64,000 bases of DNA, from sequence record PQ850614.1. One strand, written 5' to 3'. Position numbers and translations under genes: made by a program. The notes beneath the pieces were generated by a model that was given only the letters and a program-made list of their open reading frames with translations, made no database searches and had not been told where the DNA came from. This document shows, piece by piece, positions 48,200 through 61,503 of this stretch. The stretch is from Escherichia phage LorandFenyves_Bas91. The number at the start of each line of letters is the position of its first letter. Within the stretch, counting starts at the first letter, position 1.

Positions 48200-48460
48200 T
48201 CATTTGTTTTCCTGTGGAGTTAAGATAATTTCAGCTTTACTAAACTTCTCACCAACAACCATATCACCAGAGATGACACGCAGTTCTCCAGTGCCTAAGT
48301 TAACAGCTCCAGCAGGTTGACAGCCCCTGCTCTTAGCTGTAAGCATATAAATCTTTTGATCCTTACATTCTTGGAGTGTGAATACGTCAGCCATGCTTAG
48401 GTCTTTAACATGGAGGATTATTTCCTCCTTGCTTTTAACTTTAATGTGAATAGTGCTCAT
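48200..48460 (-). CDS. small protein, member of an expanded paralogous family
   Basis: Shares a loose GD.F...[FYW]...(C/V)VNL..G pattern with at least seven other small ORFs. Confidence 0.4.
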   Translation of the reverse strand: MSTIHIKVKSKEEIILHVKDLSMADVFTLQECKDQKIYMLTAKSRGCQPAGAVNLGTGELRVISGDMVVGEKFSKAEIILTPQENK

Positions 48461-48462
48461 GA

Positions 48463-48708
48463 TTACTCCTGAACCACTGACATACGAATCACTTCAACTG
48501 GGGCATCACTTTTCATAACACCTAATACACCAGTAAGAAGATTAACTGTCGTAATCCAACCATCTTCTACAGAGATTTTGTTGGACACATTATTGACACG
48601 GATGTAATACTGAGGGGATGCCGTTCCTCTCTGAACTACGAAAGGGTTTCCGGGAATAATTGTAGCCAGTGAAACCGTGTTATCTTTAATCTTTGGGATG
48701 ATCTTCAT
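48463..48708 (-). CDS. small protein, expanded family member
   Basis: See 48200-48460. Confidence 0.4.
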   Translation of the reverse strand: MKIIPKIKDNTVSLATIIPGNPFVVQRGTASPQYYIRVNNVSNKISVEDGWITTVNLLTGVLGVMKSDAPVEVIRMSVVQE

Positions 48709-48959
48709 TTAGAGTCCTTAATAACGTTAGCTTCAACCTTAACAGGAATAACAGAGATACCCTCTACCGGAGCACTTAGGAATCCATCTTCTAGATTGAC
48801 ACACACAACTCGATCTCGTGCAACTTCTACCCAATCAGTGCATTCCGCAGTACAAACCATATGCACTACACCGTCTTCTTTCAATCTAAAGGTATCACCC
48901 TTCTTCAGAGTGCGGAGCTTTGCCGTCTTGATGGTTTTGTTCAACTCGTTAACTTTCAT
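48705..48959 (-). CDS. small protein, expanded family member
   Basis: LKKGDTFRLKEDG...VVCVNLEDGFL. Confidence 0.4.
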   Translation of the reverse strand: MKVNELNKTIKTAKLRTLKKGDTFRLKEDGVVHMVCTAECTDWVEVARDRVVCVNLEDGFLSAPVEGISVIPVKVEANVIKDSK

Positions 48960-48967
48960 ATTGATTC

Positions 48968-49279
48968 CTATTTAAGTTTGAGGCTAATATTAAGGTGCAT
49001 ACATGCCCTGTTCTGTACAGCAGCATAACTTCTACCGAGCATGTCAGCCATTCTCTGAATAGACATGAACCCAGCATTACGGATAAGGAACTGGTCTTCT
49101 TCTTCAGACCACTTAACTCGGATTGAAGCTCTTGATATTCCGAACTTAGTGCAAGCTGTGTTAACAGCATTCTCCGTTACATTCATAATCTGAGCAACTT
49201 CTTGAACCGAGTACTCTTTGATCAATCTCCGAAGATTTTCAATCTGCATCGGAGTCCATATAGTTCTTCGTGCTTTCAT
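48968..49279 (-). CDS. DNA-binding protein with two HTH-like repeats (putative regulator)
   Basis: ATG at 49279 after GGAGGA; two repeats of an E.A..M.V....V..R.....I-type helix-turn-helix pattern. Confidence 0.45.
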   Translation of the reverse strand: MKARRTIWTPMQIENLRRLIKEYSVQEVAQIMNVTENAVNTACTKFGISRASIRVKWSEEEDQFLIRNAGFMSIQRMADMLGRSYAAVQNRACMHLNISLKLK

Positions 49280-49710
49280 ACATCCTCCAATTAAACATTT
49301 ATATAAGACTTGCTTAGATAAAGATTCAATAAAATAGGGGGAGGGGACGAATCCTCCCATATCCTATTAATTAAGTTTGCATGTAAGATCTAACAATCGG
49401 TTGCCTTTGTAGGAATAGGTGTAAAGCCAATCCAGCACTAAACTCCCGCCCCCTTAGTGGGCTGGGTTATTAAAGGGTAACGCCCTTATGGGCTAGTTAC
49501 ATGAATGTTAGTTTGATAGGAGATCTGAAGTCCTATCTCAAAGGACTCTCGTAAGAATCCTTCACGATATTACTTATTCATTTTTCGTCGGCTATCTCTC
49601 CAAGCCAACCAAGTGTAGGTTTTCAACTCTTCTAAACTTTCTGGAGTGAATAGGTATTCTTTGAAGGTGTCACTAAACCACTCTAAAAATTCTTCAGTCA
49701 TAATAACATC

Positions 49711-49956
49711 TCATTTCTTAGGTAGAATAATATCCCACAGCCATGCCCACAAAATAAGTGATATAAAAATCACAGCAATGATGGGCCATAGAAAAACTAT
49801 AATTGCTATCTTTGATAAGTTTGGTTCGTTATCCCACCCTCTGAACTCGATACTGCCCTTTACATCAAGATATCTTACCAGAGCTGAAACTATCACAATA
49901 CCTATCAGGTAAACAATCAAGACACTAACAGGACTGATCACAAGGTTGATCTCCAC
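49711..49956 (-). CDS. small integral membrane protein
   Basis: 81 aa, two to three hydrophobic helices. Confidence 0.45.
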   Translation of the reverse strand: MEINLVISPVSVLIVYLIGIVIVSALVRYLDVKGSIEFRGWDNEPNLSKIAIIVFLWPIIAVIFISLILWAWLWDIILPKK

Positions 49957-50107
49957 ATGTTTTACAAATCACTGGTGAATAACTACAGGCAGGATATACT
50001 GACACACCATCAAACGTTTCACACCTACAATCAGGGCACTCACCATTGGATTCCATGTCATCATCATCATACACTTCTCCACCACCATAACAGCTCATAT
50101 GAACTCC

Positions 50108-50329
50108 TTAGTAAACTAAACCTATAGCCTTTGCATCAGGCTGAGGGACTACTTTTGCACTAGGGCGATAGCCATCCACTGAGCCATTCCAAAGATTGAC
50201 ACAGGTGATATACCCATCGTTCAAGTAGTCTGTTTTAATCCAGAAGTGTTTATCATGACCAAAAATACTTCCGTTTGGCAGAGTGGACAGCTCAACGGTT
50301 TTAAGCGACTGCTTAGAGTCTAGTTTCAT
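50108..50329 (-). CDS. small protein, expanded family member
   Basis: LPNGSIFGHDKHFW...ITCVNLWNGSV. Confidence 0.4.
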   Translation of the reverse strand: MKLDSKQSLKTVELSTLPNGSIFGHDKHFWIKTDYLNDGYITCVNLWNGSVDGYRPSAKVVPQPDAKAIGLVY

Positions 50330-50336
50330 AATAACC

Positions 50337-50585
50337 TCAATTATCGTAGCATGTATTCCAATACATGTAGTTAACGTACGTTCTCGGTTTGATTCCGTAC
50401 ATGATGAAGTGAGTCTTCTTAATCCTTTCCTTCAGCGTGTAATAAAGGCCATCACTGAAGTTACCAATCTTTACTTGGAAGCGTAAGGAGCGAGCATCCA
50501 TTCGAAGCATAGAGATTAGCTGTACCCTACTACCTCCAGCCATCTCTTCAAGAAGCTTCTTTGTATTCCAATAATGAGCTGTCAT
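50337..50585 (-). CDS. hypothetical protein
   Basis: 82-aa ORF. Confidence 0.35.
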   Translation of the reverse strand: MTAHYWNTKKLLEEMAGGSRVQLISMLRMDARSLRFQVKIGNFSDGLYYTLKERIKKTHFIMYGIKPRTYVNYMYWNTCYDN

Positions 50586-50586
50586 A

Positions 50587-50868
50587 TTACCACTCCTTAC
50601 CGGTTGTTGTTACAGAACCACCACACCACTGCGCATCGGATAAGGTTTTAGTCTCCTCATCTACTGCTGCACCATTCAGGCATGAGATACCACTGTAACG
50701 CATATCAATTTCACCAGAAGGAACCTTCTCGCCCTTATGCCAGCGAGAAACACAAACACCTTCCACTGCTACTGCACACCATCCATCAGGACGGCTCTGT
50801 ACGCAGCCTGTAAGGGCCACACAGACAAGGAAGATACAGATTAAGGATATTACACCACCCCAACTCAT
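50587..50868 (-). CDS. lipoprotein (Cys-rich)
   Basis: Signal peptide with lipobox LTGC. Confidence 0.45.
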   Translation of the reverse strand: MSWGGVISLICIFLVCVALTGCVQSRPDGWCAVAVEGVCVSRWHKGEKVPSGEIDMRYSGISCLNGAAVDEETKTLSDAQWCGGSVTTTGKEW

Positions 50869-51013
50869 AACTACCTCCTATTTGATTTGGTGGACTATCT
50901 GGAATCGAACCAGAAGCTCACTAAGAAAGTAATTCCCACTGTTATAAAAGCACTTGCCTCAACAGGGATACACTAACTCTGGTGCCGTACCCATACTAGC
51001 CCTTGTTTAAAAT

Positions 51014-51089
51014 TGGTCGGGACGGAAGGATTCGAACCCTCGTAAGGCGAGTTAGAAGCTCGCTGCCTGTTCCACTAGACTACGCCCCG
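51014..51089 (-). tRNA. tRNA-Arg (anticodon UCU), CCA encoded
   Basis: Hand-folded cloverleaf: acceptor CGGGGCG/CGTCCCG, D-stem GTCT/AGGC, anticodon stem GCGAG/CTCGC with loop CTTCTAA, T-arm GAGGG-TTCGAAT-CCTTC, discriminator A plus CCA. Confidence 0.85.
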
Positions 51090-51502
51090 ATAGATTTGAA
51101 ACCGTTATACTTACCTGCACATGATCTGTTACAAAAAGAATTTGCATATTTAACATTTCGCTTTTCTTTTTCAAAAGATCTTCCACAATAAGAGCAAACA
51201 ACTGAAATCATTGTTCTTCCAGTAGTTGCTTCTAATGTTGACTTCTTTCTGTGATTTTCTATGGAAAGTATCTGAAGATTAGATATGTCATCATTAGTTT
51301 TATTTCTGTCAATATGATCAACCTCCTCGTCTTCAGTTAGGTACCTGCCTATGTGACAAGACATTAAATATCTTGCGTAAGAAATGGTTGTCCTCTCCGT
51401 GTCGGTATTATACAAATCAACACGCTTCCTACCATCTCTGCTTGTTCTTAAGTAGCCCAATCGCCAGTCATTAACGAAGGGGTATTCTAACTCTATCTTC
51501 AA
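51080..51502 (-). CDS. HNH endonuclease (start uncertain)
   Basis: EVDHIDRNKTNDDISNLQILSIENHRKK HNH motif; track 3' end overlaps the tRNA by ~10 nt. Confidence 0.55.
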   Translation of the reverse strand: MKIELEYPFVNDWRLGYLRTSRDGRKRVDLYNTDTERTTISYARYLMSCHIGRYLTEDEEVDHIDRNKTNDDISNLQILSIENHRKKSTLEATTGRTMISVVCSYCGRSFEKEKRNVKYANSFCNRSCAGKYNGFKSIGA

Positions 51503-51536
51503 AACCCCTCCATTGAGCTAAGGGTGCTGAGTTTGT

Positions 51537-51788
51537 TTAACTAAAGATACGCAAGGCCACATCGTGACCGATATGACCGGGAACTTTATGCTGTTCTATT
51601 TTCAAACAGCGCTTACAGACACGAGATACACGAGACTCTTTTCTCTCGACTGGAGTGTCTTTAGCGTGAGTGATTTGAAGGTTTTCAGTGATCACCCACT
51701 CGTGTTTACATCCAGAATCTTCGGGCTTTTTCTTACGAAAGAACATAACACCCCTTAGATCAGATCTGTTTTCTTGTGCAGACCACAA
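51537..51788 (-). CDS. small Cys/His-rich protein
   Basis: GCKHEW...VCKRC pattern shared with two neighbouring small ORFs. Confidence 0.35.
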   Translation of the reverse strand: MWSAQENRSDLRGVMFFRKKKPEDSGCKHEWVITENLQITHAKDTPVERKESRVSRVCKRCLKIEQHKVPGHIGHDVALRIFS

Positions 51789-51928
51789 ACTTTACAGCGA
51801 GAGTAGATACGCAACCCTTGTCGCTCTCTGTCAGTAAGTTTATTTGTGATCGTCAGTTCATAAGTAGAAAGATCTTCCCACTCATGGAAATGAAAGAAGC
51901 GTTTGAACCATTTGATCATAATGATTCC

Positions 51929-52150
51929 TTAGATTACATCACGATGACTAACATCACCACACACCTTACACTGAATAACGTAACGTGTGCCCTTGTCATT
52001 ATTCCCATCTGAATCTGTATAGACCAGAGGGCGAGTATCAATAATCTTCCAATCATGACAATGAAAGACACGCTTTAGCCACTTGAACATATTAACCTCA
52101 AGCACAAGCAGGGAGTGTGATGATCTTATACTTACCATCAAACTCTCCAA
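51929..52150 (-). CDS. small Cys/His-rich protein
   Basis: Internal MFKWLKRVFHCHDW...CKVCG; paralogue of a 54-aa ORF at ~51755-51919. Confidence 0.35.
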   Translation of the reverse strand: MESLMVSIRSSHSLLVLEVNMFKWLKRVFHCHDWKIIDTRPLVYTDSDGNNDKGTRYVIQCKVCGDVSHRDVI

Positions 52151-52349
52151 ATAAACCTAAGAATGTAGGACTGTAAGTACCAGTACAAACAAACTCATCA
52201 AACAATGCGTTATAGCTAGGCTTAATCTTCCAAGCCCATACATAACCCATCTTGTCAATTGCAATGTAACGAGTGTTCAGAGGAACAGTCATTATTACAC
52301 CATCAACTTCGATCACTTTAGTTATTGGTGCAGCTTGAAAGTTTTTCAT
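52098..52349 (-). CDS. hypothetical protein
   Basis: 83-aa ORF. Confidence 0.35.
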   Translation of the reverse strand: MKNFQAAPITKVIEVDGVIMTVPLNTRYIAIDKMGYVWAWKIKPSYNALFDEFVCTGTYSPTFLGLFGEFDGKYKIITLPACA

Positions 52350-52564
52350 ACTTTACCTTTAATGAAAATGTCATTACCACATACACAGCATGAACGAACA
52401 ACAGTAGCGCCGCGCTGAACGATACGAACCTCTTCTTTAACCAGATTGACACGAGCACTACAACAAGGAGAGTTAACATAAGAGTAACCAGCTTGTGTAT
52501 TCTTGATTGTTTGCTTAGACATTTGAGCTTCCTCTTGTTAGTTTAAGTAAGAGCTGACCCTTAA

Positions 52565-52596
52565 TTAAAACAACAAAGGCCGCCCGAAGGCAGCCT
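52565..52596 (-). terminator. intrinsic terminator (UUCG-loop hairpin)
   Basis: Minus-strand RNA AGGCUGCC-UUCG-GGCGGCCU followed by UUUGUUGUUUU; same core as at 23328. Confidence 0.55.
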
Positions 52597-52600
52597 CTCT

Positions 52601-52852
52601 TTATTGACTAACACCACGAATCAGATGATTCTGTAGCATTTCATCTTCTGCATTATACAGGAATGCAAACATCAACTCCTTAGCCACATCTCTTGAGCAA
52701 TTAAGACACTTAGAGATTTGCGTTAGTTGCATGTTGCGTTCTGTGTGTTCCATCAAGGCAATGCGAATGATCTCTCGCATACCTATCACATGGGTTGTCT
52801 TAACCGGCATAGGTCCAATTGCCTTGTTTGTTACGGATGGCTGACATTGCAT
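52601..52852 (-). CDS. hypothetical protein
   Basis: 83-aa ORF; a 46-aa ORF overlaps its 5' end in another frame. Confidence 0.4.
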   Translation of the reverse strand: MQCQPSVTNKAIGPMPVKTTHVIGMREIIRIALMEHTERNMQLTQISKCLNCSRDVAKELMFAFLYNAEDEMLQNHLIRGVSQ

Positions 52853-53182
52853 GAATCCAGAAGCCTTCCAGTTTCAGAGCACCATTAGCTACTGCATCCA
52901 TACGTTCAGGGCGGTTCATACGTTTGGTTGATACTTTCATACCTATCTCTCTTTGTTAGTGGAGGCATTATTGCCAGTTGATATAAGGGATAGCCCTAGT
53001 CAGTAGACTAATCCTGACCGCGTACTCATTGCCGACCTTCTCTGCCTAAGAGTTCAGGTTCTAGAGCTATCTCTTATTCCAACTGGTGAAGACTCCCTAC
53101 CCCTAGGAAGTCTCCTGAATCCCAAACCAATACGTACCCCTACATATCGGAAAGTCTTTCGAAAATTAACAGGTTTTAGTCT

Positions 53183-53229
53183 AACACCGGATGTTCGAGC
53201 AAGCTCTCCCTAGCGGTGTGGCATATGCC
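53183..53229. repeat. conserved intergenic element, copy B
   Basis: ACACCGGATGTTCGAG-CAAG-CTCTCCCTAGC-GGTGTG plus GGCATATGCC hairpin; counterpart of 47163-47213. Confidence 0.6.
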
Positions 53230-53298
53230 TGAATTAATAAGTTAATGAGGAACACCCTCACATAGCCCTCTGATAAACACAAGGGCTATAAGTCGGTG

Positions 53299-53517
53299 TT
53301 ACTTTTGGGATAAACACAGATCAGGGCGTGGCATAACAGTGGTTGATAGACCGAAAACTTCAACAGAACCACTATTCAGATTAGCGGCCTTGCACAAACC
53401 ATCAGGAGTTTTATCTTCTAACATTAGCCAGAAACGTCTATCGTAGGAGAAAACATCACCACTTTTAACATCTTCTGCATTTGCATATTTAGGATAATCA
53501 ACTACTTTAATTTCCAT
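53299..53517 (-). CDS. small protein, expanded family member
   Basis: VKSGDVFSYDRRFW...LCKAANLNSGSV. Confidence 0.4.
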   Translation of the reverse strand: MEIKVVDYPKYANAEDVKSGDVFSYDRRFWLMLEDKTPDGLCKAANLNSGSVEVFGLSTTVMPRPDLCLSQK

Positions 53518-53527
53518 CTACTTACCC

Positions 53528-53746
53528 TTATTGGTTGATGGTTAGGTGAACTAGCTTATTCACATGAGCGAAGTTAGGTAGGATTTGCATTTCATTATTG
53601 AAGATATTAAAACAACGAACCCCGCCCTCTACAGCATAAGCAGATTTCTGAAACAGACTACCTCCCCACACAAATACATCATGTGTTTCAAGAGATCGTA
53701 ACTGAACAGCCTCGTCAACAACCTTCTTTTCAATGTTCATAATCAC
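53528..53746 (-). CDS. small protein, expanded family member
   Basis: LETHDVFVWGGSLF...VRCFNIFNNEM. Confidence 0.4.
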   Translation of the reverse strand: MIMNIEKKVVDEAVQLRSLETHDVFVWGGSLFQKSAYAVEGGVRCFNIFNNEMQILPNFAHVNKLVHLTINQ

Positions 53747-53997
53747 TTCCGATTAGTAATAACAACGTCATGAAGAAGAACAACCTTGCTTTTCGAGCTG
53801 AGCTTAAGGACTTGCTTGTTTGTTAGACTAAGGACGACACAACCACCATCAGAAGGCTTAGTCTCCTCGACCTGCGATCTAAACAGGTGAACAACCATGT
53901 AGAAATCTGCTCGTGTTTCCCTGATTTGGAATACATCTCCAAGTTTGAGATCACCAACACACAAAGACGGTTCATTTACTTCAAGATTAATCTTCAT
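53743..53997 (-). CDS. small protein, expanded family member
   Basis: LKLGDVFQIRETRADFY...GGCVVLSLTNKQV. Confidence 0.4.
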   Translation of the reverse strand: MKINLEVNEPSLCVGDLKLGDVFQIRETRADFYMVVHLFRSQVEETKPSDGGCVVLSLTNKQVLKLSSKSKVVLLHDVVITNRK

Positions 53998-54250
53998 CTT
54001 TAACCTCTACCTCTACGTTGGTTATGTGGAGATCGTTACGAACTTGGCAGACCTCATTTCGGTTAATAGGGACAAGCTTTCCATAGACCACATCAACGCA
54101 TTTAACATGATAATCAGATGTTGAGTCTGTTCTGATATAGAGTTTTTCTCGGAAAGAAAACAAAACTCCCGGCCTCATGTTATTTAAACGAAGGTGATGG
54201 CCTGTTTCTTGGATATTAACTTTCACTGTTGATCTCCTGCTGTTTAGCAA
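53987..54250 (-). CDS. small protein, expanded family member
   Basis: MRPGVLFSFREKLY...VKCVDVVYGKL. Confidence 0.4.
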   Translation of the reverse strand: MLNSRRSTVKVNIQETGHHLRLNNMRPGVLFSFREKLYIRTDSTSDYHVKCVDVVYGKLVPINRNEVCQVRNDLHITNVEVEVKDED

Positions 54251-54512
54251 TAGCTACTCGCAAGTCTTCATTAGCACGAGCAAGGCGTTTAACTTCATGA
54301 TCAAGGCTGATAAGGCGCTTGTTTCTGTCTTCAACTTGCATAATAAGATCGTTGAGTGTTACTTTAACTTTCTCATTATACATCTCATCTACTCGGACAA
54401 GAGATTTATACATTCTCTCCCAGCTTGCTGCTTTGTTTCTTAGGATAATAAATCCTAGAACGCTGATAGTTAAACAGATTACAAAAAGGAATTTATATAC
54501 TTCTAAAGTCAT
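54216..54512 (-). CDS. bitopic membrane protein (N-terminal TMD plus coiled coil)
   Basis: FLFVICLTISVLGFIIL followed by a charged helical segment. Confidence 0.4.
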   Translation of the reverse strand: MTLEVYKFLFVICLTISVLGFIILRNKAASWERMYKSLVRVDEMYNEKVKVTLNDLIMQVEDRNKRLISLDHEVKRLARANEDLRVAIAKQQEINSES

Positions 54513-54711
54513 ATTATTTACCCTTTATCAGAGATTAAAAGTAATATTATTTAAGTAAGTTATATTTAGTAAATTTATTTTCTAAGAAATTTTCAAAGGG
54601 TCTATATACAGAGCATTACCCATAGTCCCAGAATACTGCCATCTTTTTCAATAAATTTACTAAGTGGTTGGTTTATAAAGGAATTTAGTTTGTTAAATCT
54701 GGCACTAGAGA

Positions 54712-55101
54712 TTATTCCCTAGAGCTATTATCGAACACTAAATCACCACAATACATAGGATTGGCATACCATTTTGGCACCCCTTCGCTCTTACTCTGAA
54801 AGTAAGTCCCACTATAAAGCGGAACATAATTCTTCGTAAGGGCACGTTTAGCTAGCCGCTCGCTTTCTCCAATGGCTTGCTTAGTCATCGGATTTTTATC
54901 ACGAATCAGCTTTACATAACGTTTATAAGGTTTCTCCTGTTTTAATAGTACCGAAATCCACTCAAACTGGTTCTTTTGTCTTATCACCTGTTCAGCGGTC
55001 AGTTTTCGTTGGGCCATTCTATTTATCACGGTATCCGCAACTAAAGCCTTACATGCGGTTGGCTGATTCCCTGCCTCATAATAAATAGTCAATGTCAACA
55101 T
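54712..55101 (-). CDS. cell-wall hydrolase (SleB/CwlJ-type domain)
   Basis: LTIYYEAGNQPTACKALVADTVINRMA...NQFEW parallels the IYxEA...VAxVVxNR...QFxxW pattern. Confidence 0.6.
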   Translation of the reverse strand: MLTLTIYYEAGNQPTACKALVADTVINRMAQRKLTAEQVIRQKNQFEWISVLLKQEKPYKRYVKLIRDKNPMTKQAIGESERLAKRALTKNYVPLYSGTYFQSKSEGVPKWYANPMYCGDLVFDNSSRE

Positions 55102-55144
55102 TAGCTGTGCCGTTGTTATCAGAACTTGATACCTCCTGTTTTAC

Positions 55145-55176
55145 GGGCATAAAAAAGCCCCAGCCGTAGCCGGGGC
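55145..55176 (-). terminator. intrinsic terminator
   Basis: Minus-strand RNA GCCCCGGC-UACG-GCUGGGGC followed by UUUUUU. Confidence 0.6.
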
Positions 55177-55290
55177 AAACCTGAAAGCAACACATGACCG
55201 TTGCTATAAATACACTCGCAAATGCACTTATAGCAACGCAAAAAGCCGCTCAAAGGCGGCTATGCGGAAGCTTCAAATGGGGAGAGGGCA

Positions 55291-55324
55291 CGACGCTACA
55301 GAAAGAGCGTCATAGTACTAAAAG
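55291..55324. repeat. conserved element with TAGTACTA palindrome, copy 2
   Basis: GACGCTACAGAAAGAGCGTCATAGTACTAAAAGAGG; hairpin GACGCT-ACAGAAAG-AGCGTC overlaps the conserved core. Confidence 0.55.
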
Positions 55325-55341
55325 AGGGGGCTATATTCCTA

Positions 55342-55785
55342 CTACTTAACCCTTGCCTCTTTGATGGGGTCAATGTATTTTTCAACGCCCCACTTGTGTT
55401 TACTATCTGCGTAGAAAACATCAGGTGCACACTGGCTTGTCTTAGGGAAAGCCTGCGGGTCTTTCGTGCTACCCTTAAACTTCTGTTTACCACGGGTGCG
55501 ACCATTACAGAAGATTTCTAACTTCTTCTCTTCTTCTGTTTTAGCGCCCCCGCTCTGTAACAAAGAACGTTTATGATCAGCTAATAACAACGCATCAGCA
55601 CGATGGACACGATGGCCTACACGTTTTGCCACACTGGAAGGAACATGGGATTCAGCCTCAGCCTTTGCAGCACGACGTTTTAAACTACGCTTACTAACGT
55701 GATTAGCTGCCTTCGGTTTCTCTTTCTCTAGTTCAGAGATAGCAAAACAACGCCCGCCCTTCATGCTGATTTTAGATTTAGCCAC
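55342..55785 (-). CDS. basic (K/R/A-rich) protein
   Basis: 147-aa ORF; the overlapping ORF 55296-55505 is considered spurious. Confidence 0.45.
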   Translation of the reverse strand: MAKSKISMKGGRCFAISELEKEKPKAANHVSKRSLKRRAAKAEAESHVPSSVAKRVGHRVHRADALLLADHKRSLLQSGGAKTEEEKKLEIFCNGRTRGKQKFKGSTKDPQAFPKTSQCAPDVFYADSKHKWGVEKYIDPIKEARVK

Positions 55786-55854
55786 AATCTTATTCCTTTT
55801 AGTGATAAATTATATCGGGCAAGCCCATCAAGGTGACAGGCTTGAACAAATAAC

Positions 55855-56064
55855 TTAATCGAGTAAACTAAATGACTTCCAACTGCGTAGCAGGATTGTA
55901 CCATCATCCATAGCCACGCATAACTTTAACAGCTTCTTGTTAGCACTACTCACCGTTGTAATTCGTCCGGTTGTACATTTACCTTTATTGCTATAAAGAT
56001 ACACTACACGACGACCTAACAGACGAGAGGGAGCTTTCTTAAACTCTGAAATATTAGTGATCAT
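55855..56064 (-). CDS. small protein (possibly related to the expanded family)
   Basis: 69-aa ORF. Confidence 0.35.
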   Translation of the reverse strand: MITNISEFKKAPSRLLGRRVVYLYSNKGKCTTGRITTVSSANKKLLKLCVAMDDGTILLRSWKSFSLLD

Positions 56065-61475: not shown

Positions 61476-61503
61476 ACTATATATTAAAGGAAAAGGCTGT
61501 CAA
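61476..61503 (-). promoter_or_regulatory. sigma70-type promoter (TTGACA-N16-TATAGT)
   Basis: Minus strand reads GAAAATAAATGG-TTGACA-GCCTTTTCCTTTAATA-TATAGT; shares GGTTGACAGC with the 58462 promoter. Confidence 0.55.

Follow-up and report, generated by a model that had tools for sequence, protein, structure and literature searches.

The early region of Escherichia phage LorandFenyves_Bas91, a phiEco32-like coliphage (Kuravirus), carries a set of short open reading frames whose products share a loose GD.F...NL..G pattern. Such faint likeness raises two questions: do these proteins form a true family, and what might so many versions of one small protein do in the infected cell? We addressed both in the window, by which we mean the whole 64,000-nucleotide stretch of sequence record PQ850614.1 that was analysed. 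An earlier note had listed nine frames, eight as members of an expanded paralogous family and 55855-56064 as a possible ninth; all nine are present on the minus strand with unchanged coordinates.

Eight divergent homologues in the early region

Pairwise identity among the in-genome paralogues is just 12-29% and most pairwise phmmer comparisons give E > 0.001, as might be expected if the resemblance were compositional or accidental, or if the frames were non-functional relics and no real family existed. The closest pair, p4 and p5 (Table 1), reaches E = 1.4e-8, and an iterative HMM seeded with these two recovered exactly eight of the 399 six-frame ORFs in the window that encode 40 aa or more. 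A second, independent HMM was built from 79 distant non-Kuravirus proteins and contained no Kuravirus sequence. The eight ORFs alone matched it (E 6e-21 to 3e-10); the next of the 399 ORFs followed at 0.72. In terms of E, at least ten orders of magnitude lie between the eight and everything else in the window, and the model also separates them from shuffled controls, the best value across 20 shuffled ORF sets being 0.03. In hhalign (run with -norealign for family queries) each of the eight sequences aligned to the distant-only profile over 63-72 columns with a probability of 96.8-99.2%. The eight ORFs thus have an alignable core, and therefore their similarity is not compositional. They are true, if very divergent, homologues, and the multiple alignment and HMM building that the note had proposed as a check bear out its eight-member family.

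Table 1. Family genes and upstream promoter-like sites in the window
Feature	Position	Strand	Product (aa)	PHROG	phiEco32 counterpart	Distant-only HMM E	hhalign probability (%)	Remark
p1	48200..48460	-	86	12612	gp95	7.9e-12	96.9	most divergent copy; AGGAG upstream of ATG
p2	48463..48708	-	81	7431	gp96	1.2e-12	97.3	AAGGA upstream; dN/dS 0.08-0.35
p3	48705..48959	-	84	7832		1.6e-12	97.4	stop overlaps p2 start (ATGA)
p4	50108..50329	-	73	6570	gp104			singleton 'hub' copy, nearest to family consensus
p5	53299..53517	-	72	6570	gp113	9.3e-16	98.2	
p6	53528..53740	-	70	33163		2.7e-10	97.2	probable start ATG at 53740
p7	53743..53997	-	84	9955	gp114	9.3e-11	96.8	
p8	53987..54226	-	79	16423	gp115	9.2e-14	97.1	likely start GTG at 54226; alignment begins at residue 10
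promoter-like site	61503-61476	-						near-consensus sigma-70; 11/12 matches, consensus scan only
promoter-like site	58948-58920	-						near-consensus sigma-70; 11/12 matches, consensus scan only
promoter-like site	58462-58434	-						near-consensus sigma-70; 11/12 matches, consensus scan only

The frame 55855-56064 does not belong to this group. It scored an E of about 1 with the HMM and an hhalign probability of 0.5%, it falls into a PHROG of its own (14815) without cross-hits, and its product has a pI of 10.2 compared with 4.9-9.2 in the eight. The other small early ORFs of the window concealed no further members (hhalign probability at most 1.6%).

Are the eight genes functional? All of them are preceded by a Shine-Dalgarno motif, and their gene-wide dN/dS (NG86) has a median of about 0.19, indicating purifying selection. 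They are real and functional genes. Orthologues are kept across dozens of phages. This, together with the hhalign probabilities, the distant-only HMM and the same predicted fold in the two paralogues that were modelled (see below), leaves the idea of chance similarity or relic ORFs with a negligible likelihood; the HMM, hhalign and dN/dS results refute it. Two starts were moved on the strength of orthologue N-termini and Shine-Dalgarno motifs. Translation of p6 probably begins at the ATG and not at the GTG of the ORF ending at 53746, as its orthologues begin MNIEKK; that of p8 likely begins at the GTG, which has AGGAG 7 nt upstream and fits orthologues beginning MKVNIQ, and not at the TTG of the ORF ending at 54250.

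The genes are arranged as a tandem cluster of three, a tandem cluster of four and one singleton. Upstream of the array lie promoter-like sites which, to judge from their match to the consensus, would drive leftward early transcription. This layout agrees with the early promoters of SU10 and phiEco32, and in SU10 the early genes comprise CDS 69-125 (PMC4281155). The array lies downstream of the sigma-70-like sites and inside an early block of the SU10 type, so its assignment to the early region stands.

A small barrel with a conserved core and a free surface

The pattern that first drew attention to these genes is real. Column statistics for 111 sequences, numbered according to p4, revealed conserved columns at G20, D21, F23, Y/W/F30, C/A/V43, V44, N45, L46, G49 and L/V51, with F23 invariant. 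The core motifs G-D-x-F and (C/A)-V-N-L-x-(T/N)-G are accordingly present in the eight ORFs, as are an aromatic position in strand 2 and a conserved Val late in the sequence. Conservation is confined to the hydrophobic core and the turns, whereas alternating positions are near-random; the same statistics contain no conserved polar triad or residues of catalytic type.

Structure prediction, also suggested in the note, was run on p4 and p1. Both AF2 models are five-stranded SH3-like barrels (pLDDT 81.8 for p4 and 84.5 for p1), the common barrel being supplemented in p1 by paired N- and C-terminal strands. Relatives in BFVD superpose with TM values of 0.7-0.88. p7 differs in that the loop joining strands 2 and 3 is longer by an insertion of about 10 aa. 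The topology matches the solved class of SH3-like small beta-barrels (KOW, Tudor, Sm and similar). In contrast to other SH3-like barrels, the family proteins (about 70-90 aa) stand alone, the first strand beginning at the N-terminus itself (M-K-I), and have turns of their own, G-D-x-F and V-N-L-x-T-G. No sequence-level relationship links them to TDRD2, Spt5 KOW, the uL2 C-terminal domain, the UvrD/PcrA C-terminal Tudor domain, CarD, FeoA or the VapX antitoxin.

A fold of this kind suggests small nucleic-acid binders of the KOW, Tudor, Sm or cold-shock-like type whose targets would be RNA or DNA of the phage or the host; they might, for instance, chaperone RNA, regulate translation or serve as accessory replication or transcription factors. 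The nearest solved folds, EF-P/eIF5A domain I, the uL2 C-terminal domain and Spt5 KOW, are indeed RNA or ribosome binders. Moreover, a protein of Tenacibaculum (Bacteroidota) has a SprT-like protease domain followed by five lysine- and arginine-rich copies of the domain. Proteases of the SprT/Spartan type use DNA-binding modules, and these fused copies are a hint of nucleic-acid binding in some relatives. A review of jumbo phages (PMC7824862) also describes small proteins with an SH3 fold, akin to those in nucleic-acid-binding toxins, that are encoded beside phage DNA polymerases.

Several observations nevertheless make a nucleic-acid role unlikely for the copies studied here. Their net charge is only -2 to +2, and the distant stand-alone members have a median pI of 5.0, with 76% below 6; proteins so near neutral or acidic do not look like general nucleic-acid binders. 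What is conserved is core and turns, with no basic or aromatic surface patch among the conserved positions, and eight or more divergent, fast-turnover copies are hard to square with a housekeeping role. Homology to EF-P/eIF5A domain I (PF08207), which Foldseek and visual inspection had raised, was rejected: the hhalign match, 15 columns long and out of register, had a probability of 6%, 30 column-shuffled controls reaching at most 1.3%, and Pfam EFP_N matched 1 of 81 members with E = 0.17. The lysine-bearing PGKG loop tip of EF-P corresponds in the family to a variable, often acidic loop.

A large family scattered over unrelated phages

The note had described an expansion within one phage. This part of the claim fails, because the family extends throughout the phages and each copy in the window has a nearer relative outside the genome than among its seven in-genome paralogues. 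By these comparisons the copies are old lineages and not recent local duplicates. The breadth of the family is easily missed: a first word-index search returned only Kuravirus orthologues and a second 16 proteins, and an exhaustive search was needed to reveal 1048 cluster representatives (50% clustering). Among the members are N4 gp21 (family HMM E 6e-18), PaP3 ORF65 (2e-10) and LUZ24 gp7 (1e-10), which are like the Kuravirus copies in size, fold and non-structural early or middle context but occur as one copy each, compared with 8 to 11 in Kuraviruses. The same context was found in Klebsiella phage Seu621, a Vibrio phage and a Proteus phage, and an unrelated IMG/VR contig contains a tandem triplet of family genes. 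A literature search on N4 gp21 and the Kuravirus paralogues yielded nothing relevant.

In PHROGs the family is split into at least eight separate families (6570, 7832, 7431, 8365, 16423, 9955, 12612 and 33163), all labelled 'unknown function'. Every paralogue of the window matches one of them strongly (E 1e-23 to 1e-51), and single distant relatives match several Kuravirus PHROGs at once. Judged by these matches, the eight PHROGs form one superfamily. No similarity was found to curated families in Pfam and NCBIfam, to the defence models of PADLOC or to PDB sequences. The family is thus large, unnamed and mostly phage-borne, and it occurs across many unrelated phages.

The domain is also found within giant Ala/Gly/Pro-rich proteins of 1920-3223 aa, which embed 1 to 6 copies and show no recognisable Pfam or PDB domains. 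That these are mis-called fusions of small-ORF arrays was rejected because the units lack a start Met and lie within continuous Ala/Gly/Pro-rich sequence. IMG/VR yielded no match for P0262, one of the giant proteins, or for the two-domain protein P0123. The embedded copies resemble in their modular logic the polyvalent proteins of phages and mobile elements described by Iyer et al. 2017 (PMC5512222), which are multidomain, whereas the window proteins stand alone. Since the words 'barrel', 'Tudor', 'KOW' and 'SprT' are absent from that paper, it appears not to describe such a domain.

Turnover and possible roles in infection

Kuravirus relatives possess 3 to 11 copies, phage LAMP only 3, and alleles are replaced slot by slot. 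The p3 slot of phiEco32 and NJ01 holds an allele with only 26-28% identity; p6 is missing in phiEco32 and present in NJ01; p7 exists in two allele classes, about 55% and 93% identical. Median identity to eight relatives is 68% for the family copies compared with 94% for neighbouring early genes, dS is 0.81 compared with 0.30, and dN/dS exceeds that of the neighbours (p = 3.6e-4). Copy-number flux, allele replacement and divergence together amount to accessory, fast-turnover behaviour. The term 'diversifying', used in the note, is therefore apt as a description of turnover. For classic positive selection or an arms-race signature, gene-wide dN/dS, being below one, gives no support.

The note had also spoken of takeover proteins. 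If this is understood as classical host shut-off, each protein would inhibit an essential host process. The position behind predicted sigma-70 promoters and the small size, typical of many known shut-off proteins, are consistent with such a role, and the wider early region of Kuraviruses does contain a gene for a host-RNA-polymerase inhibitor, gp79 (PMC12276001). The only assayed member of the family argues otherwise. When 13 early proteins of LUZ24 were tested in P. aeruginosa PAO1, growth was inhibited only by gp4, gp6, gp9 and gp11 (PMC4635203); gp7 had no such effect, a result for one protein in one host. Scores with the family HMM cover gp7 and its neighbours gp8 and gp10, the neighbours at E about 4. 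Furthermore, slots are lost or swapped between close relatives, down to the 3 copies of LAMP, which is atypical for conserved essential targets, and divergence is far above that of neighbouring early genes. Shut-off is consequently not favoured, and we consider it very unlikely.

Because core and turns are fixed while the surface is free and residues of catalytic type are lacking, the proteins can be read as non-enzymatic binding modules. Each gene would encode a stand-alone, single-domain SH3-like (KOW/Tudor-type) five-stranded beta-barrel, transcribed early by host RNA polymerase from the predicted sigma-70 promoters, and the two tandem clusters may be translationally coupled. A rigid hydrophobic core with the tight turns G-D-x-F and V-N-L-x-T-G would serve as a scaffold on which exposed residues vary almost freely, so that each copy could have its own partner in the infected cell. 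The likeliest partners would be host proteins that the cell can do without, for example immunity or stress factors, and the modules would act as accessory host-modulating or anti-defence factors, not as lethal shut-off proteins. We give this reading, an early set of small binding modules with different host targets, a probability of about 0.5. Several observations weigh against it: the hint of nucleic-acid binding from the basic SprT-fused copies, the negative searches of curated families, the gene-wide dN/dS below one, and the DNA modification proposed for restriction-modification resistance (see below). In addition, tblastn with the family consensus found no homologues on plasmids, anti-defence leading regions included.

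A bolder version would be a modular anti-immunity toolkit, in which one mini-barrel is re-specified at its surface and each paralogue neutralises a different defence or stress protein. We regard this as doubtful. Resistance of Kuraviruses to defence systems is documented, so far without explanation; the BASEL authors attribute resistance to restriction-modification to a proposed DNA modification and not to inhibitor proteins. If the toolkit were true, the 8 to 11 Kuravirus copies would explain the broad resistance of the group to restriction-modification and other defences, and the giant, injected-type proteins would use this binder in cis through their embedded copies.

Small early ORFans are the largest pool of phage unknowns and the usual origin of host-takeover and anti-defence proteins. 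Merging at least eight PHROGs, N4 gp21, PaP3 ORF65, LUZ24 gp7 and about a thousand metagenomic clusters provides a single annotation handle with a defined fold and signature. At present the eight copies are good candidate host-binding factors, not yet the discovery of a mechanism. Kuraviruses offer a natural study system, with 3 to 11 copies, natural presence/absence variation and availability in BASEL; PTXU04, the phage of the CRISPRi-ART paper, is grouped by the BASEL paper with Xuquatrovirus and not with Kuravirus. Should the copies be dispensable or redundant, this would help genome engineering of therapeutic Kuraviruses. If they are target-specific binders, nature would have provided in them a compact scaffold from which inhibitors of bacterial proteins could be evolved.

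The family of eight small early genes

Over its full length the window matched Escherichia phage vB_EcoP-CHD5UKE1 at 97%. Some 100 further phiEco32-like podoviruses matched at 80-97%; phiEco32, the reference, is classified in Gordonclarkvirinae, Kuravirus. The nine small ORFs which an earlier note had grouped by a loose motif, the ninth tentatively, were all present on the minus strand. Identity between pairs was only 12-29%, and a single pair, p4 and p5, was significant by itself (phmmer E = 1.4e-8), p4 being the hub with weaker links to the remaining copies. Out of 399 ORFs (40 aa or longer) from all six frames, an iterative HMM seeded with this pair recovered exactly eight (p1 to p8; see table). 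An HMM built only from 79 distant non-Kuravirus proteins gave E-values between 6e-21 and 3e-10 for these eight, with the next ORF at 0.72 and the best match in 20 shuffled ORF sets at 0.03. Compared singly with this profile by hhalign, each sequence gave a probability of 96.8-99.2% over 63-72 columns. Because these three independent tests agree, the similarity is real and the eight ORFs are, as had been proposed, a genuine paralogous family. The proposed motif also coincides with conserved columns (G20, D21, F23, Y30, C43, V44, N45, L46, G49 and L51 in p4 numbering). The ninth ORF does not belong, since it failed all three tests (HMM E ~1, hhalign probability 0.5%); it is assigned to a separate PHROG and encodes a strongly basic protein. 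No hidden members were detected among the other small early ORFs of the window.

Coordinates of the family and of features discussed in the text (L, loci of related phages or genomes; P, proteins from the exhaustive profile search)
Feature	Coordinates	Strand	Remarks
p1	48200-48460	minus	most divergent copy
p2	48463-48708	minus
p3	48705-48959	minus
p4	50108-50329	minus	hub copy
p5	53299-53517	minus
p6	53528-53740	minus	start revised
p7	53743-53997	minus
p8	53987-54226	minus	start revised
Ninth ORF	55855-56064	minus	separate conserved early protein; PHROG 14815; pI 10.2; 83-94% identity in relatives
tRNA-Arg(TCT)	51014-51089
HNH-endonuclease-like ORF	51080-51502	minus	140 aa (EVDHIDRNKTNDD...N); adjoins tRNA-Arg(TCT)
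Second paralogue set	51537-51788, 51755-51919, 51929-52150	minus	spans 51537-52150
98-aa neighbour (window counterpart)	54216-54512
phiEco32 gp98	L001 2462-2692		family member, E = 1e-7
phiEco32 gp109	L001 5350-5574		family member, E = 5.5e-5
IMEP8 record	L011 7752-7985		labelled family member
NJ01_132 record	L007 1479-1697		labelled family member
PaP3 ligase cluster	L014 32292-39596
Tenacibaculum MAG protein	L016 6001-7437		bacterial SprT-like metalloprotease, then five lysine-rich (basic) family copies
P0124, P0135, P0139, P0246, P0262			Ala/Gly/Pro-rich giants, 1920-3223 aa; 1 to 6 embedded domain copies

Shine-Dalgarno-like motifs accompany all eight genes. Two starts should be moved, that of 53528-53746 to the ATG at 53740 and that of 53987-54250 to the GTG at 54226, which has AGGAG upstream. 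On the leftward strand the genes are arranged as two tight clusters, with stops and starts overlapping or nearly abutting, and one singleton; terminator-like hairpins separate the gene groups. Upstream are sigma-70 promoter-like sites at 61503, 58948 and 58462, each with 11 of 12 consensus positions. These sites and the agreement of the layout with the early unit of SU10 and phiEco32 (CDS 69-125; PMC4281155) bear out the assignment to the early region.

Two other features are found between the clusters. None of eight related phages had a counterpart of the HNH-endonuclease-like ORF, which is therefore probably a mobile homing endonuclease that inserted next to the tRNA gene. Three further ORFs make up another, smaller set of paralogues with the common pattern 'W(F/L)KR.FH.H.W ... 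C(K/R).CG', zinc-ribbon-like in appearance; this set is poorly conserved (39-59% identity among relatives).

Distribution outside the window

The family ORFs correspond to phiEco32 gp95-97, gp104 and gp113-115, whose annotations all read 'hypothetical'. Two further phiEco32 members, gp98 and gp109, have no counterpart in the window, and p6 is missing from phiEco32. A word-index search returned Kuravirus orthologues only; when 1.84 billion representatives were searched exhaustively with a profile (E <= 0.001), 1048 proteins were obtained. The majority were stand-alone proteins of 69-87 aa with the signature M-K-I ... L..L..G-D-v-F ... F/Y-Y-M/I-k-T-D ... C-V-N-L-x-T-G-x-L ... V, and two-domain proteins also occurred. 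Members from cultured phages include N4 gp21, PaP3 ORF65 and LUZ24 gp7, as well as proteins of a Klebsiella Mydovirus, Vibrio phages of ~130 kb, Proteus and Cronobacter C3-type phages and Pseudomonas ZC03, each annotated as 'hypothetical'.

Five giant proteins carry embedded copies, often preceded by a 'dP.aW' motif, which are genuine domains and not fused small ORFs. No Pfam or PDB domains were recognisable in these giants, which may be injected or polyvalent-type proteins. The SprT-like fusion from a Tenacibaculum MAG, also among the 1048 proteins, has a Crocinitomicaceae homologue with a single weak copy; it represents a cellular use of the scaffold, probably for nucleic-acid binding.

The family had no match in Pfam, NCBIfam, PADLOC or PDB sequences, a plasmid search gave no homologues, and a literature search found no paper describing it. 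In PHROGs it is spread over eight or more families of 'unknown function', and distant members link these to one another. Some members bear the public labels 'endolysin' or 'putative two-domain glycosyltransferase' (IMEP8, NJ01_132 and BFVD entry A0A7L4XW47 from EcoN5), names which our analysis does not support; a 98-aa neighbour bears the public label 'DNA helicase'. An amidoligase, glutamine amidotransferase and COOH-NH2 ligase cluster is common to PaP3 and Kuraviruses (L006-L012), and in both it adjoins small early genes.

Copy number, turnover and selection

Kuravirus-like phages carry 3 (LAMP), 7, 8, 9, 10 or 11 (EP335) copies, with 9 in phiEco32 including gp98 and gp109. Outside this group a region showed one or two clear copies (two to four in Proteus 3H10_20); one IMG/VR contig had three in tandem, and a Grimontviridae phage had seven. 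One slot is often filled by very different alleles, as for p3 (26% versus 85% identity) and p7 (55% versus 93%). Against eight relatives, median amino-acid identity was 68% for the family and 94% for 23 other early genes; comparisons below 70% identity made up 57% and 15%, respectively. Each window copy scored better with an outside relative than with any of its seven in-genome paralogues, so the copies are old lineages and not recent tandem duplicates. The expansion suggested earlier is thus real and its turnover fast, but it is phage-wide and ancient rather than specific to one phage or recently amplified.

Median dN/dS was higher in the family than in its neighbours (0.19 versus 0.10; p = 3.6e-4), a value at which the genes are nevertheless constrained and functional. 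dS was also much higher (0.81 versus 0.30). This indicates that recombination has shuffled old alleles, and speaks against a simple burst of positive selection. The term 'diversifying' therefore fits the quick replacement of alleles but not the mode of selection, which is purifying.

Fold and probable role

AlphaFold2 models of two copies, the hub p4 (pLDDT 81.8, core above 90) and the most divergent p1 (84.5), showed the same small five-stranded barrel; in p1 the N- and C-terminal strands were additionally paired together. Foldseek against PDB was consistent with the barrel and ranked EF-P/eIF5A domain I first (best E 0.027, TM ~0.5). Homology to this domain, considered in view of a visual likeness of the motifs, was rejected, as hhalign gave a probability of 6%, out of register, and Pfam EFP_N matched one of 81 members (E = 0.17). 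The family can therefore be placed only at the level of fold.

Residues that are conserved are either hydrophobic and buried or located in turns; the exposed positions come close to random, and no conserved catalytic-type residue occurs in the family columns. Window copies are near neutral and distant stand-alone copies mainly acidic (median pI 5.0), which argues against a general nucleic-acid-binding role; the basic copies fused to SprT nevertheless suggest that such binding is within the reach of the scaffold. LUZ24 gp7, the sole assayed member, was one of 13 early proteins that were expressed in P. aeruginosa; four of these inhibited growth, and gp7 did not (PMC4635203, Table S2). This result, the flux in copy number and the persistence of LAMP with three copies make the takeover role suggested earlier improbable in the sense of host shut-off. 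Together with the residue pattern and charge they favour another reading, namely that the family probably consists of binding modules which are non-lethal and individually dispensable, differ in their targets, and act as accessory factors in host modulation or anti-defence.

According to the BASEL study, Gordonclarkvirinae show a remarkable resistance to restriction-modification and to the other defences tested, with no known inhibitor; its authors suggested DNA modification as the explanation (PMC11990801). We infer that the family is among the candidates for contributing to this resistance. The family is uncatalogued, has a common fold and a role that is putative only, and can readily be tested.
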